Origin: Erysipelotrichaceae bacterium
GTDB taxonomy: Bacteria > Bacillota_I > Bacilli_A > Erysipelotrichales > Erysipelotrichaceae
NCBI GenBank assembly: GCA_963676105.1
Contig: OY781039.1
Span: 1,890,001-1,922,000 of the forward strand
Reading direction: 5' to 3'
Length of the DNA stretch: 32,000 nt
Within the stretch, counting starts at the first letter, position 1, and every line of letters starts with the position of its first letter. Shown in pieces: positions 4,470 through 10,232 of the stretch. The translations under genes were made by a program, and so were the position numbers. The notes under the pieces are model-generated. The model did not search any database. It was not told where the DNA came from and saw nothing but the letters and a program-made list of their open reading frames with translations.

Positions 4470-4507
4470 AATCCTACTTTAACATGTGGCTATGTTATAA
4501 TGTTCGC

Positions 4508-5431
4508 ATGAATTTAAAACGTGCAATTTTACTCAGTTTGTTAACTGTATTGATATTAAGTAGCTGTGCTCAAGAAGAAATTATTCCTGAGGATATTCAC
4601 CAAGAAATAAGTCTTGATTTTACGAGTCACGAGTTTACAATTGCGGGCTTACCAAGTTATGTAAAGGAAGAGAATGTTTATCGTGTTGAAAGTGAGGAAG
4701 AAGTTGCGCTTTTAGCCTTTATTCATAGTCTTGATGAAACCTTGGATTTTAATTATATTTCAGATAATGAATTAGATATTGATCGTATCTACGCTTTCTT
4801 AGAGACCTTATTAACATATTCTTTTAATCTAAGTTCATCTCAATTATCCTATACCCAAAATGACGAAGTGGTATTAACGCTTTATCAATTACATGTGCAA
4901 CCTGTTTTCGCTGAGTGGACATTAGTCGATAACTACGCTGATGATATAAGTGGTGATGCGAACTTAGATGGTGAAACCATTTTAGAAAAAATAGAATGGG
5001 CTCATGATGTGATTGTTTTAAACACAAAATATGATGAAACTGTTTTACAACTTGATTTAACAAAACCTACAACACATTTATCTTTTGACTCTTTAGGTGT
5101 GTTTTTAGATAATACAGCAGTTTGTTCAGGTTATGCACGTGCTTTTAGCGCTTTAAGCTATTCTATGGATATTCCAAGTTTAATTGTATCTTCAGAATCA
5201 ATGATGCATGCGTGGAATTTAGTTTATGATGGCGATGAATGGTTATTTATTGATACTACTTGGGATGATCCAATTCCAGATAAAGAAGGCCGTGTGTTAT
5301 ACACCTACTTCTTACTAGACGAGAGAGACTTCATTTCTGATGGGAAACATGAATTTGATAAAAGCAGCAATGCGACTTTAAGTGCCGATGAATACATTGC
5401 TTTTGCGAATTATGTCTTCTTTAATGAATGA
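4508..5431 (+). CDS. Lipoprotein with a transglutaminase-like (Cys-His-Asp) domain
   Basis: From ATG 4508 the N-terminus is MNLKRAILLSLLTVLILSSC, a signal peptide with a lipobox Cys. The C-terminus carries CSGYARAF...MHAWNLVYDGDEWLFIDTTWDDP, the transglutaminase-core C/H/D arrangement. The track start at 4484 would place the TGtTATAAT promoter element inside the CDS. Confidence 0.75.
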   Translation: MNLKRAILLSLLTVLILSSCAQEEIIPEDIHQEISLDFTSHEFTIAGLPSYVKEENVYRVESEEEVALLAFIHSLDETLDFNYISDNELDIDRIYAFLETLLTYSFNLSSSQLSYTQNDEVVLTLYQLHVQPVFAEWTLVDNYADDISGDANLDGETILEKIEWAHDVIVLNTKYDETVLQLDLTKPTTHLSFDSLGVFLDNTAVCSGYARAFSALSYSMDIPSLIVSSESMMHAWNLVYDGDEWLFIDTTWDDPIPDKEGRVLYTYFLLDERDFISDGKHEFDKSSNATLSADEYIAFANYVFFNE

Positions 5432-5460
5432 TGTAAAGTTATGAAAATTTATGAAAACGC

Positions 5461-5488
5461 TTGCATTTTGTATTCATAGGTCTACAAT
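5461..5488 (+). promoter_or_regulatory. Candidate sigma-A promoter for the leader/ankyrin/EF-G-paralog transcript
   Basis: TTGCAT (5461-5466), a 16-nt spacer, then TACAAT (5483-5488). Confidence 0.4.
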
Positions 5489-5511
5489 AGAATTAACAAG
5501 AATTTAGAAAG

Positions 5512-5648
5512 AAGGTCCACATTATGTTAGGGGTCAAAAAGACAAACGATCCACTTCATTTAGCGCACCACGAGGATGCGCTCTTAACTTGTGGAATTCT
5601 GAATTTAAATCGTATTTTAAAGATGGGCTAGGTATGTCCATCTTTTTT
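5512..5648 (+). promoter_or_regulatory. Candidate leader-peptide attenuator: 35-codon ORF (5524-5631), internal hairpin, and an intrinsic terminator
   Basis: AAGG (5512-5515) sits 8 nt before ATG 5524. The ORF reads MLGVKKTNDPLHLAHHEDALLTCGILNLNRILKMG and stops at TAG 5629-5631. Hairpin 1 is AGCGCA 5562-5567 / TGCGCT 5577-5582. The terminator stem is 5619-5628 / 5636-5645 (8 Watson-Crick pairs, 1 G-U, 1 C-G), with the T-run ending at 5648. The leader stop codon lies in the terminator loop. Confidence 0.4.
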
Positions 5649-5682
5649 GTACGCTGTTTGAGAAATGAGGAGGAAAACACAA

Positions 5683-6351
5683 ATGGATCAAACAAATCAA
5701 CTATTCTGGGATGCTGCAGCAGCAGGTGATTTCCAGAAAGTCGTCGCAGCTGTTAATCAAGGTGCTGACGTTAATATTAGAAATGGTGAAGCTAGAACAG
5801 CCTTAATGCGTAGTTCTAAGCGTGGCCATGAAAAAGTCGTACGTTATCTTTTAGATAAAGGTGCAGATGTTAATGCCCGTGATAATAATGGGAAAACAGC
5901 TCTGATGGGAGCCGCAAAAAAAGGACATACACTTATTGTTAAAATGTTCTTAGATATTGATGTGGATGTTAATGCACAAGATGTAAGAGGACGTACAGCA
6001 CTCATGCGTGCAAGTCTACTGGGACATGATGAAGTGGTTGATATGCTTGTATCAGCTGGAGCACAAGTAGATATAGCTGATGAAATGGGACGTACCGCAT
6101 TAATGGAAGCATGTAATGCGTTTAGATTTGAAGTGATTAAACATTTAGTAAGTGCAGAAGCAGATGTTAATGTACAAGATTCAAATGGCGTAACGGCGCT
6201 AATGAGAGCTGCTTATACTGGCTACTCACAAATGGTTGAGTATTTATTAGATCATAATGCAAATAAAGAACTTGTAGATGCAGACGGTAATAAAGCCATC
6301 CATTATGTAAGACAAGATTGTTTAGCGGAATTGAAACCGGTATTGAAGTGA
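5683..6351 (+). CDS. Ankyrin-repeat protein (about 6 ANK repeats)
   Basis: The unit G.TALM.A...GH..VV..L...GADVN.. recurs about every 33 aa, for example GEARTALMRSSKRGHEKVVRYLLDKGADVNARD, NGKTALMGAAKKGHTLIVKMFL, RGRTALMRASLLGHDEVVDMLVSAGAQV. I prefer the ATG at 5683 because the track start at 5665 (ATGAGGAGG) is itself the AGGAGG SD. Confidence 0.85.
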   Translation: MDQTNQLFWDAAAAGDFQKVVAAVNQGADVNIRNGEARTALMRSSKRGHEKVVRYLLDKGADVNARDNNGKTALMGAAKKGHTLIVKMFLDIDVDVNAQDVRGRTALMRASLLGHDEVVDMLVSAGAQVDIADEMGRTALMEACNAFRFEVIKHLVSAEADVNVQDSNGVTALMRAAYTGYSQMVEYLLDHNANKELVDADGNKAIHYVRQDCLAELKPVLK

Positions 6352-6361
6352 GGAATGATAG

Positions 6362-8443
6362 ATGAAAGATTATGCAGCACAAGATGTTAAAAATATTGTT
6401 TTATTAGGTCACTCAGGTAGTGGTAAAACAACCTTAGTTGAATCGATGTTACATTTTACCAATGCGTCTGATCGCTTAGGTAAAAATGCCGATGGGACCT
6501 CTGTTTTAGATTATGATCCAGAAGAAGCAAAAAGAGGCGTTTCAGTCTTTACCAGTTTAGCGCCAGTAGAATGGAAAGATCATAAACTTAATTTTATTGA
6601 TACACCAGGGTATTTTGATTATGCGCAAGAAATGGTCGCAGGTTTAGCGGTTGCAGATAATGCGCTCGTTGTAGTTGATGGTCGTGATGGAGTACAAACA
6701 GGTACCATTCGCAGTTTTAAAGCCGCCAATGAAAAGAAATATCCTATCTTATTCTTTATTAATAAACTCGATGAAGAAAATTCTTCTTTCGAAAAAGTAT
6801 TAAGTCAACTTAGAGAACAATTTGGTAAATCAGTTATTCCATTTGAAATGCCAATTATGGAAAATGGGGCAATAATTGGCTCTATTAATATCCTTAAAGA
6901 TAAAGCATGGTATATAAGTGATCCTGAAACTCCACAAGATGTCCCAGAAAATTTAAAAGCACATGTCGATGAGTATGTTGAAATGATTAAAGAAGCTGTC
7001 GCGATGGAGAGCGAAGAGCTGATGGAAAAATACTTTAGTGGCGAAGAATTTACAGATACAGAACTTCTACAAGGTGTCCGTATTGGAGTAAGAAATGGTG
7101 ATATTCATCCGGTTTACTCTGGTAGTGCAACTCAGTCAGTAGGTATTCGTCGTTTAATGGATTTAATTAGTGCTTACTTCCCATCCTATGGAGAACTAGG
7201 AGTTATTAAGGCTAAAAACTTAAAGGGAGAAGAAGTTGAACTTCATACCAATGAAGAAGAAATTTTCTCAGCTCAAATATACAAAACTATTGTAGATCCG
7301 TTTGTTGGTCGAATTTCGCTCTTAAAAGTGATGAGTGGAACATTGACATCTGATACACATGTCTATAATTCGAATAAAGAAGAATCTGAAAAAATCTCTC
7401 AAATCTTTATTATTAAAGGTAAACACCAAATCGCAGTTGGAAAACTCTTTACTGGCGATTTAGGTGCAATTGTTAAACTTCAACATTCACATACTGGTGA
7501 TACCCTAGCAACTAAAGAAAATCCAGTTATTTTCGAAAAAATTGAGTTCCCAGTTGGAAATCTAGCGATGAGTATTTGGCCAGTTTCCAAAAATGATGAA
7601 GATAAAATGAGTGGTGCCCTACAACGTATTGAAGAGGAAGATCCATCATGTACTGTTGTGAAGAATGCTGAAACCAATGAAGAAATTGTTTATGGTTTAG
7701 GTGATCAACACTTAGATGTCATTGTGTCTCGCTTGAAAAATAAATATAAAGTAGAGGTTGAACTGAAAGAACCTCGTATCCCTTATCGAGAAACCATTCG
7801 TGGAACAGTTACCGTTGAAGGAAAACACAAAAAACAATCAGGTGGCGCAGGTCAATTTGGGGATGTCTTTATTACTTTTGAACCTTGTGATGATGAAGAC
7901 ATGGTCTTTGAAGAAAAAATCTTCGGTGGTGCAGTTCCTCGCCAATACTTCCCGGCTGTTGAAGCAGGACTACGAGAAGCAATGGTTAAAGGGGTATTAG
8001 CTGGCTATAAAGTAGTCGGTGTTAAATGTACTTTGGTTGATGGGAAATATCATGATGTTGATTCAAAAGAAATTGCCTTCAAAATGGCTGCGAAGAAAGC
8101 GTATCGTGCAGGGATGCCTCAAGCAAAACCAGTTCTTCTTGAACCGATTGTAAAAGCTGAAGTTACAGTTCCAGAAGAATTTACGGGAACAGTTATTGGA
8201 GATTTCAATAAACGACGAGGTATCATCCTTGGTATGGACTTCAACGACGATGGTGATCAAGTAGTCTCTGCAGAAGTGCCTATGAGTGAAATGATGCGTT
8301 ATTCAACAGAACTTAGATCATTTACTCAAGGGGTTGGAATCTATACACAAGTCTTTGAAAGATACGATGTATGTCCACCAAATATTGCCGATCGAGTGGT
8401 TAAAGAATCTAATCACAAAGTTGACGACGAAGACGACGATTAA
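6362..8443 (+). CDS. EF-G paralog (EFG-II-like translational GTPase) with Tyr in place of the catalytic His
   Basis: It has EF-G length (693 aa) and domain order. G1 is GHSGSGKTT, switch I is EEAKRGVS, G3 is DTPGYFDY (normally DTPGHxDF), G4 is NKLD, G5 is SGSA. Domain IV has DGKYHDVDSKEIAFKMA. The C-terminal tail VDDEDDD is acidic. The gene starts 10 nt after the ankyrin gene stop. Confidence 0.9.
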   Translation: MKDYAAQDVKNIVLLGHSGSGKTTLVESMLHFTNASDRLGKNADGTSVLDYDPEEAKRGVSVFTSLAPVEWKDHKLNFIDTPGYFDYAQEMVAGLAVADNALVVVDGRDGVQTGTIRSFKAANEKKYPILFFINKLDEENSSFEKVLSQLREQFGKSVIPFEMPIMENGAIIGSINILKDKAWYISDPETPQDVPENLKAHVDEYVEMIKEAVAMESEELMEKYFSGEEFTDTELLQGVRIGVRNGDIHPVYSGSATQSVGIRRLMDLISAYFPSYGELGVIKAKNLKGEEVELHTNEEEIFSAQIYKTIVDPFVGRISLLKVMSGTLTSDTHVYNSNKEESEKISQIFIIKGKHQIAVGKLFTGDLGAIVKLQHSHTGDTLATKENPVIFEKIEFPVGNLAMSIWPVSKNDEDKMSGALQRIEEEDPSCTVVKNAETNEEIVYGLGDQHLDVIVSRLKNKYKVEVELKEPRIPYRETIRGTVTVEGKHKKQSGGAGQFGDVFITFEPCDDEDMVFEEKIFGGAVPRQYFPAVEAGLREAMVKGVLAGYKVVGVKCTLVDGKYHDVDSKEIAFKMAAKKAYRAGMPQAKPVLLEPIVKAEVTVPEEFTGTVIGDFNKRRGIILGMDFNDDGDQVVSAEVPMSEMMRYSTELRSFTQGVGIYTQVFERYDVCPPNIADRVVKESNHKVDDEDDD

Positions 8444-8451
8444 AATGAGAG

Positions 8452-8482
8452 AGCATGTATCACACATACATGCTTTTTTTTG
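8452..8482 (+). terminator. Intrinsic terminator after the EF-G paralog
   Basis: Nine-bp stem AGCATGTAT (8452-8460) / ATACATGCT (8466-8474), loop CACAC, followed by a T-run of at least 8. Confidence 0.8.
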
Positions 8483-8513
8483 TATAATAAGAGACATAGA
8501 CGGTGAGAAAATT

Positions 8514-9448: not shown

Positions 9449-10232
9449 GAAACAAGAAGTTTCAATTATCACAAGACAGACATTAAGAGATGGATTTTTA
9501 GCATGCGGACTTCATAAAGGCGATATCGTCGAGGTGCATGCTTCTTTAAAAGCAATTGGTTATTTAGTGGGTGGGCCACAAATCGTTATTGATGCATTAG
9601 TAGATGTGATTGGAATCGAAGGGACAATTGTCATGGCTGCACAAGCTTATGATAATTCTGAACCAGCGTTCTTTGAAAACCCTCCAATTCCTGTGCAAGA
9701 TTATGATCGCTTTAGAAAAAGTCGACCAGCATATCGAGGCAAACTTGAAAATATTCGACCAATGGGTGAATTAGCAAGAGCACTACTCAGTCGCCCAAAT
9801 AGTTATTTATCAGATCATCCGCGCGATGCCTTTATCGCTATGGGTAAATACGCTAAATGGATCACACAAAATCATCCTTTATCATCTGAGCTAGGACCAG
9901 ATTCTCCTTTAGGTAAAATGTTGGAGTTAAAATCTAAAATTTTATTAATTGGGGTAGATTATGACAATGCCACAGGCATGCATTTAGGTGAACACTTAAG
10001 TGGTAAACGAGAACATATTCTACAAGGTGCACGTATTGTGATTCATGGCGAAAGTCATTGGGTTAAGTTTAATGCGACAGATTATGATTCGAATGTATTT
10101 GTAGAACCTGGAAAAAGACTAGAAGAAAAAGGGCTTGTAAAATTTGGACAAATTGGCTCCGCTAAGGTAAAGTTATATACATTAGAAGCTGCGACAGAAG
10201 TTACGAAAGCTTACTTTGAGGAGGTCTTATGA
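9441..10232 (+). CDS. Aminoglycoside N3-acetyltransferase family protein (AAC(3)/YokD-like, Antibiotic_NAT)
   Basis: Family-typical N-terminus: ..LRDGFLACGLHKGDIVEVHASLKAIGYLVGGPQIVIDALVDVIGIEGTIVMAAQ. Later motifs are LLIGVDYDNATGMHLGEH. The start is GTG and overlaps the upstream stop by 8 nt. Confidence 0.75.
   Translation: MNKKQEVSIITRQTLRDGFLACGLHKGDIVEVHASLKAIGYLVGGPQIVIDALVDVIGIEGTIVMAAQAYDNSEPAFFENPPIPVQDYDRFRKSRPAYRGKLENIRPMGELARALLSRPNSYLSDHPRDAFIAMGKYAKWITQNHPLSSELGPDSPLGKMLELKSKILLIGVDYDNATGMHLGEHLSGKREHILQGARIVIHGESHWVKFNATDYDSNVFVEPGKRLEEKGLVKFGQIGSAKVKLYTLEAATEVTKAYFEEVL

Follow-up and report, generated by a model that had tools for sequence, protein, structure and literature searches.

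A short leader reading frame ending at an intrinsic terminator ahead of an ankyrin and EF-G2-like gene pair in Erysipelotrichales: a predicted attenuator acting by ribosome occlusion

The window analysed here is a stretch of 32,000 nucleotides from an Erysipelotrichaceae bacterium (contig OY781039.1, positions 1,890,001 to 1,922,000 of the forward strand). It raises the question of what a short open reading frame (ORF), ending inside an intrinsic terminator, is doing directly upstream of two genes, one for an ankyrin-repeat protein (ank) and one for a paralog of elongation factor G (EF-G). An earlier note on this DNA had likened the layout to the attenuator of tet(M) and to the leaders of erm and cat genes. 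The answer favored here, to which a probability of about 0.68 is given, is a ribosome-dependent transcription attenuator that would act by direct occlusion of the terminator, without an antiterminator. By mechanism class the element would join the known leader-ORF transcription attenuators, with a stop codon consistently placed at the 5' edge of the terminator. The EF-G2-like/ankyrin module that it precedes is uncharacterised. The parts of the leader are as follows, in coordinates of the window.

5461-5488, + strand: sigma-A type promoter, TTGCAT (5461-5466), a 16-nt spacer and TACAAT (5483-5488)
5506-5516, + strand: Shine-Dalgarno sequence of the leader ORF, extended AGAAAGAAGGT, with AAGG at 5512-5515
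5524-5631, + strand: leader ORF, ATG 5524, 35 sense codons, TAG 5629-5631
5562-5582, + strand: mid-ORF hairpin, AGCGCA/TGCGCT, weakly supported
5619-5648, + strand: intrinsic terminator (predicted attenuator), a 10-bp stem, a 7-nt loop and a U-run

The promoter, Shine-Dalgarno sequence, 35-codon ORF, three histidine codons, mid-ORF hairpin and terminator with the stop codon in its loop were all described in the earlier note, and each was found again at its coordinates. The AGAAAGAAGGT element ends 8 nt before ATG 5524, and the ORF translates as MLGVKKTNDPLHLAHHEDALLTCGILNLNRILKMG, with histidines at H12, H15 and H16. The terminator consists of a 5' arm AAAGATGGGC (5619-5628) and a 3' arm GTCCATCTTT (5636-5645) around the loop TAGGTAT (5629-5635), which contains the leader stop codon; the T-run extends up to 5648 and the energy is -12.4 kcal/mol. 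The hairpin pattern is unique within the window. A simple consensus terminator scan gave no match at the 5619-5648 hairpin, and energies were computed separately; in our view the scan missed it because the A-U pairs of the stem use T-run bases that the scan counts as tail. From the T-run to the ank start codon (ATG 5683) there are 34 nt, which include the ank ribosome-binding site AGGAGG (5668-5673). ATG 5665, found in a mechanical ORF list, was rejected as the ank start, since it sits within the region of that binding site. For the window by itself, 8% of shuffles yield an ORF that has a Shine-Dalgarno sequence, is at least 20 codons long and ends at the terminator, which is not decisive.

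The comparison was extended to relatives. A one-genome-per-species scan with the EF-G protein yielded 66 loci (cited as L001 and so on), the closest relative being an Erysipelotrichaceae metagenome-assembled genome (MAG) with 93% identity. In Erysipelotrichales, about 50 loci have ank immediately 5' of the EF-G gene, and the identity of their EF-G proteins goes down to about 53%. Homologs in Clostridium, Desulfoscipio and Sporotomaculum (44-47% identity) are without ank, and no obvious comparable leader was found at these non-ank paralogs (L045-L049 in Clostridium; L051, L052, L054 and L061 in Desulfoscipio/Sporotomaculum). A more distant locus, L065, is a canonical fusA behind rpsG (35% identity). 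The 320 nt 5' of ank were extracted from 50 loci and inspected by eye, then by script; many of these loci are MAGs, in which occasional frame differences may be assembly errors. Cultured carriers include Copranaerobaculum intestinale (L018), Longicatena caecimuris DSM 29481 (L019), Amedibacillus dolichus DSM 3991 (L020) and Catenisphaera adipataccumulans (L035).

Under strict criteria, a Shine-Dalgarno-led ORF of 20-37 codons (median 31) that stops at or inside the 5' half of the terminator is present in 48 of the 50 loci, and a Shine-Dalgarno-like sequence likewise precedes the leader start in 48 of 50. A near miss, L011, has a short flank and the script took another hairpin; by eye its ORF (MHLLL...EVLRWV) ends in the loop. 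The null for the ORF was obtained from dinucleotide shuffles of the upstream 170 nt, which in 6-18% of cases per lineage produce an ORF of 20 codons or more, with a Shine-Dalgarno sequence, that ends at the terminator. Twenty-four distinct lineages were chosen whose leader peptides are mostly unalignable with one another, and all 24 carry such an ORF, against 2.3 expected; multiplied together, the per-lineage probabilities come to about 2e-25, a figure in which shared ancestry overstates independence. Even so, the leader reading frame has outlived a divergence that wiped out the peptide sequence. Conservation of the ORF and terminator upstream of orthologs was the check that the earlier note had proposed for its claim, and these counts (48/50 loci, 24/24 lineages) leave the claim standing.

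The remaining parts are conserved as well. A promoter of the form TTGCA[AT]-16-TA[CA]AAT is found 26-55 nt 5' of the leader start codon in nearly all lineages. A hairpin followed by a T-run is present in all 50 loci (in L011 by eye only), with energies from -6.7 to -20 kcal/mol, and its distance to ank is 24-55 nt in 49 of the 50 loci by one count and, by another, in 47 of the 48 for which an ORF was scored; the terminators of L038 and L039 are farther from ank (109-111 nt). The leader element stays with ank while the upstream gene varies, a transglutaminase-like gene being found there in the closer relatives only. The position of the stop codon was counted from its first base to the first paired base of the stem. 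It is -1 in 22 of the 48 loci, the mode, and in these the stem begins with the AA of UAA as its first two bases; the stop is at +8 to +15, in the 5' arm or loop, in 19 loci, among them the window, and at -2 to -11 in seven. The overall range is thus -11 to +15, and the stop is never in or past the 3' arm (48/48 scored ORFs).

The helix itself was examined in an alignment of 34 distinct terminator segments, in which a 9-bp core was counted. In this core 90% of the cells are paired, and changes on both sides are seen at eight of the nine pairs, for example from G-C to A-U in 14 sequences at one pair. These values were reached by none of 500 shuffles, and registers slid by 1-3 columns pair just 42-66%. 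Judged by this covariation, the terminator is a real helix under selection.

How a ribosome might act on this helix was addressed by masked folding. The nascent RNA up to the stem end was folded for 30 lineages with a ribosome at each codon, the footprint from -12 to +14 of the first P-site base being kept unpaired; the size of this footprint is approximate, and structures that are kinetically trapped can escape equilibrium folding. With the ribosome farther upstream, the terminator keeps a mean pair probability of about 0.7-0.98 at almost every position; some lineages show sporadic dips at a few of them. Only with the ribosome on the last 3-7 codons, when the footprint covers the 5' arm, does the value fall to about 0. 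A ribosome masked on the last codons removes the terminator in 30 of 30 lineages, in L062 in part only (about 0.4). The earlier note had expected that a ribosome finishing the leader would occupy the terminator stem, and the masked folding agrees as regards the 5' arm. In a search with RNAduplex, the strongest pairing of the upstream leader with the 5' arm was no better than in shuffles in 16 of 17 lineages (p = 0.24-0.95), the exception being L027 (p = 0.01). Masked folding and duplex search together indicate that there is no conserved antiterminator.

These results bear first on the alternative-hairpin type of attenuator, as known from trp/his, erm, ABCF and bmrCD leaders, in which a ribosome stalled by a drug, an arrest peptide or the lack of a charged tRNA (for example that of His) frees an upstream segment to pair, as antiterminator, with the 5' arm of the terminator. 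A leader ORF and terminator before the gene of a ribosome-binding GTPase do resemble antibiotic-responsive leaders, and the window has three His codons in five positions together with a mid-ORF hairpin. Moreover, equilibrium folding would under-detect an antiterminator that is kinetically trapped and less stable than the terminator. Against this, no stall position other than direct overlap removes the terminator consistently in the 30 lineages, and the duplexes with the 5' arm stay at shuffle level in all but the one lineage named above. The His codons, which the earlier note had pointed out, are not conserved: the cluster is lost in the closest relative (PLHLALHEDA in L001, with H15L) and absent from the other clades, so that His-starvation sensing was rejected. 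No arrest-peptide motif is conserved across clades, between which the peptides cannot be aligned, and the leader ratio of nonsynonymous to synonymous substitution rates (dN/dS) is near 1. The mid-ORF hairpin was extended by RNAfold to 8 bp with one bulge (-11.0 kcal/mol). Compared with shuffles it gives p = 0.11 in the window and, over 24 lineages, a Fisher p of 8e-4 with a median p of 0.21. It is weak or absent in many lineages, varies in position from 3 to 67 nt before the stem and makes no contact with the terminator. As a universal element it was rejected on this weak enrichment; in some lineages it may be an RNA polymerase pause hairpin. The alternative pairings TCCACA/TGTGGA that the earlier note had left unresolved are not conserved and do not involve the terminator, and its comparison with erm and cat leaders did not hold up, since those work by alternative hairpins and none is detectable here. 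An attenuator of this type is accordingly considered unlikely.

Selection on the ORF was measured in 17 within-clade pairs, with ank from the same genomes as reference. The leader dN/dS is 0.28-1.38, as opposed to 0.01-0.13 for ank. The synonymous rate (dS) of the leader is lower than that of ank in 13 of the 13 pairs in which the latter could be estimated; between the window and L001 it is 0.04 for the leader and 0.61 for ank. Taken together, the dN/dS values and the low leader dS point to constraint on the nucleotides and the open frame, and not on the amino-acid sequence. Among relatives the frame even shifts relative to the terminator. The window ORF (..ILKMG*) stops in the loop, whereas those of L002 and L005 (..NDF*) stop at the stem edge, and in L029, L034 and L032 the stops are at -9, -1 and +9; in every case translation still ends at the terminator.

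The same data weigh on a second explanation, by which the ORF encodes a functional micropeptide as the first gene of the operon and the hairpin serves as a partial terminator between cistrons or stabilises the RNA. All lineages retain the ORF with its Shine-Dalgarno sequence, gene callers list some of the ORFs as hypothetical proteins, and peptides are alike within clades (e.g. VFLVT..TEV.VF.CECF.NDF and MGVFNTIV..FIVT). However, a leader dN/dS of 0.3-1.4 in the pairs in which ank has 0.01-0.13, peptides that do not align between clades, and a frame that shifts among close relatives (window and L002; L029, L032 and L034) while the stop position is retained make this explanation quite improbable.

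A third explanation, an untranslated structured leader (a riboswitch, or an RNA binding a protein or tRNA) that uses the terminator as expression platform and in which the ORF is incidental, is rated as very improbable. Synonymous sites more conserved in the leader than in ank would be expected of a functional RNA, and the whole leader of the window folds better than all of 200 shuffles (z = -3.06). The ORF body, however, does not exceed shuffles in structure (mean z = -0.3), and no antiterminator was detected. Rfam 15 gave no family in the window, where the highest-scoring hit over the leader is ncr952 with 15.5 bits against a cutoff of 100 bits, and no match over the leader in eight other diverse loci. 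The retention of an ORF with a Shine-Dalgarno sequence in 24 of 24 lineages would also be left without a reason. Finally, the idea that nothing here is regulatory, the hairpin being the terminator of the transglutaminase-like gene and the ORF a chance frame, is contradicted by the comparative data: although the stretch from the upstream stop codon (5429-5431) to the hairpin contains no other terminator, and window shuffles do give such an ORF at the rate stated above, the hairpin is 3' of a conserved promoter, stays with ank where the upstream gene differs, and is accompanied by an ORF conserved across lineages.

Occlusion of the terminator by the leader ribosome, the explanation preferred here, draws on the parts of the leader and their conservation, the covariation of the stem, the missing antiterminator and the missing selection on the peptide, all of them taken from sequence comparison. 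In this model the conserved promoter would give rise to a leader RNA of about 150-155 nt (from an inferred transcription start) that carries its own Shine-Dalgarno sequence and short ORF, with the stop codon at the 5' edge of a terminator about 35 nt before ank, or else within its 5' arm or loop. A first ribosome occupying the last codons or the stop codon while the 3' arm and U-run are being synthesized would keep the 5' arm single-stranded. No hairpin would then form, and the polymerase would continue into both ank and the EF-G2-like gene. With the ribosome absent or late, the hairpin would form and the transcript would end near 5646-5649. Under such a model the switch reports how closely translation trails transcription on the leader, that is, the distance between polymerase and first ribosome, and the signal would be carried neither by the peptide sequence nor by particular codons. 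A pause of the polymerase at about 5622-5626 could let the ribosome catch up. A T-run of 4-6 is found directly 5' of the terminator stem in about 60% of the lineages (5615-5618 in the window), and 16 of 48 leader ORFs have TTT as their last sense codon. This T-run is a candidate for a NusG-type pause motif, or else a by-product of the frequent Phe(UUU)-UAA ending. As for the physiological input, our guess is anything that alters how fast polymerase and ribosome move relative to each other, for example pausing at the T-run, the supply of nucleoside triphosphates (NTPs) or global translation capacity.

Several points weigh against occlusion. Termination at the hairpin, translation of the leader and regulated read-through by occlusion are all predictions from sequence. 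Johnson and colleagues reportedly found in 2020 that polymerase outruns ribosomes in Bacillus subtilis, so that occlusion would need a pause, here a putative one. A sensor that turns off when translation is slow is no obvious design for a back-up translation factor. In six loci (e.g. L014, L029, L042, L060 and L062) the stop codon lies 5-11 nt before the stem, which makes occlusion by a terminating ribosome marginal there, and in L033, a near miss that fails the criteria, the ORF runs through the whole terminator. The closest precedent, the leader-peptide model of tet(M), is itself contested (bioRxiv 10.1101/2021.03.24.436905).

A more specific version of occlusion is doubtful but follows from the position of the stop codon, which is conserved at the 5' edge of the terminator and on this version implies that the occluding ribosome is terminating or post-termination and not elongating. 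The leader would then measure the dwell at the stop codon (release, recycling by EF-G together with the ribosome recycling factor) or the pace with polymerase, and feed this back on an EF-G2-type factor and its ankyrin partner. If true, it would be an autoregulatory loop in gut Erysipelotrichales, from translation-factor performance or NTP state to an alternative translocase or recycling factor.

Among known systems, the pyrBI operon of Escherichia coli with its leader ORF pyrL is comparable in that the leader ORF overlaps an intrinsic terminator and no antiterminator is needed. The pyrL ORF continues through and past the terminator and has a UTP-sensitive pause region. The leader ORF described here differs in stopping at the 5' arm or loop in all 48 scored loci, and the T-rich sequence before the terminator in many lineages is reminiscent of the pyrL pause region. 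The two systems belong to different phyla (Bacillota in the present case), regulate different functions and have no sequence relationship. Tight coupling of transcription and translation across pyrL suppresses the pyrBI attenuator (PMC5021804, citing Roland 1988). As is proposed for the present leader, a closely following ribosome blocks the hairpin, and read-through is tied to coupling (PMC5021804).

For tet(M), a Tn916-type upstream region (L067) was used, the leader of which is orf12 (WP_001791010.1, 'tetracycline resistance determinant leader peptide'). Both are Gram-positive leader ORFs that overlap a terminator directly 5' of the gene of an EF-G-family ribosome-binding GTPase. In L067 the leader ORF (469-585) crosses a 22-bp terminator (about 522-569; fold z = -7.2) and stops 13 nt past it and 15 nt before tet(M). 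The tet(M) leader thus reads through the whole terminator, while 48 of 48 leaders here stop before the 3' arm; the layout differs, not the principle. The description as Tet(M)-style is accordingly apt for an ORF overlapping a terminator without an antiterminator, and inapt for the position of the stop codon. No peptide similarity was found between the tet(M) leader and the window leader, and the gene regulated here is an EF-G2-like paralog and not a Tet protection protein. According to the original tet(M) model, the ribosome is slowed by rare codons; tetracycline then raises charged tRNA, which lets the ribosome catch up, and read-through results. The model was questioned because no toeprint was seen at the leader ribosome-binding site and a start-codon mutant had an unchanged minimal inhibitory concentration (both in bioRxiv 10.1101/2021.03.24.436905).

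In E. coli under coupling, the ribosome almost fully repressed a terminator that had been put a few bp past a stop codon (Li et al. 2015, NAR, PMC4824070). The geometry of stop codon and terminator found here matches those constructs, which are a synthetic E. coli reporter series and not a natural element. The leaders of erm, msrD/mef, lmo0919, hflXr and yxjB also have a short Shine-Dalgarno-led ORF and a terminator before a gene acting on the ribosome, but they use a stalled ribosome and an alternative hairpin, whereas none is detectable here and no arrest motif is conserved. In B. subtilis, polymerase pauses that depend on NusG are found a few nt past T-rich tracts of the non-template strand, and in the yxjB leader they synchronise ribosome and polymerase (PMC6851288). 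The element described here would add a natural Gram-positive case of occlusion without antiterminator to a class that rests mainly on pyrBI and the disputed tet(M). It also raises the question of how such a switch works in a phylum in which polymerase is thought to outrun ribosomes.

The genes on either side of the leader and the end of the operon are the following.

4484-5431: transglutaminase-like gene, the upstream neighbour, stop codon 5429-5431
5683-6351, + strand: ank, ankyrin-repeat protein of 222 aa (Pfam Ank_2, 8e-45), first gene of the operon
6362-8443, + strand: EF-G2-like paralog of 693 aa (NCBIfam NF009381), second gene, 10 nt after ank
8452-8482, + strand: operon-end terminator, AGCATGTAT-CACAC-ATACATGCT then T8, 8 nt past the EF-G stop codon

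The EF-G paralog scores 873 bits with NCBIfam NF009381 (cutoff 583) and 628 with the canonical model TIGR00484, under its cutoff of 659. Its score with the tet_protect model (305 bits) is far under the cutoff of 775, so it is not a Tet protection protein. The G1 motif is GHSGSGKT (residues ~15-24) and switch II is DTPGYFDY (residues ~79-87). In canonical EF-G, switch II reads DTPGHVDF; the catalytic switch II His is therefore replaced by Tyr in the paralog. The best matches of the G domain in the PDB are 7uvp (deposited as TetQ; switch II DCPGSDDF), which we take to be a Bacteroides EF-G2, and the Thermus EF-G homolog 1wdt (DAPGYGDF). A G instead of an A at the start of G1 has been described as a signature of EF-G2 (PMC12172202). 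By its motifs and matches, the G domain of the paralog is of the EF-G2 type.

The ank and EF-G2-like genes are direct neighbours in about 50 Erysipelotrichales genomes, with 10-16 nt between them, and ank is under strong purifying selection, as its dN/dS of 0.01-0.13 indicates. Such a pattern suggests a dedicated protein pair. Literature searches returned nothing relevant on an ankyrin and EF-G operon, on its leader or on an attenuator in an EF-G leader. The attenuator would offer a testable cis-regulatory handle on a two-gene module that is kept across gut and rumen Erysipelotrichales. The condition that relieves it should be the condition in which the alternative factor is needed, and finding the inducer would be a short route to the function of the module.

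Two further conserved segments flank the leader proper.

5439-5460, + strand: candidate UP element or operator, a TTATGAAAA direct repeat, then ...AACGC, just 5' of the -35 box
5657-5662, + strand: conserved GTTTGA, between the terminator and the ank ribosome-binding site

The two TTATGAAAA copies of the window occupy 5439-5447 and 5450-5458. A motif atgaaa[at]cgc adjoins the -35 hexamer in many lineages, and the repeat is nearly identical in the distant L040, the EF-G of which is just 61% identical. The sequence 5' of the -35 box could be an UP element or an operator, as a second layer of control. A GTATA is seen about 5 nt 3' of the -10 box in most lineages.

GTTTGA is conserved within the clade that has the AAGATGG terminator. 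By eye, its TGA is in the frame of the leader ORF in five of six lineages (the window, L002, L005, L009 and L014, the last with a shifted leader frame; not L008). It might serve as a back-up stop for read-through ribosomes, or be in frame by chance. Long-range pairing of GTTTGA with upstream TCAAAC-like sequences was considered and dropped, as it appeared inconsistent among lineages by eye. A sequence resembling a slippery heptamer, U_UUA_AAG, lies in the leader frame at 5616-5622, directly 5' of the terminator hairpin, in the window and L001 only; it is probably coincidental, as it is not conserved elsewhere.

Downstream, a promoter-like site at 8459-8488 overlaps the operon-end terminator, and the start of the following PgpA-domain gene is probably ATG 8515 and not the mechanically listed TTG 8334. 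A thiamine pyrophosphate (TPP) riboswitch (RF00059, 54.4 bits) is present in L002 at 9734-9809, several kb past the EF-G gene, and is unrelated to the leader. Some of the leader ORFs, those of L019 and of relatives of L017/L038, are listed in databases as an unnamed 'hypothetical protein' of 30-40 aa, for example in Longicatena caecimuris (TCU52319.1) and Eubacterium sp. 3_1_31 (EHO83396.1). Entries for leader ORFs were found on hundreds of contigs, which shows that the element is common in gut samples.

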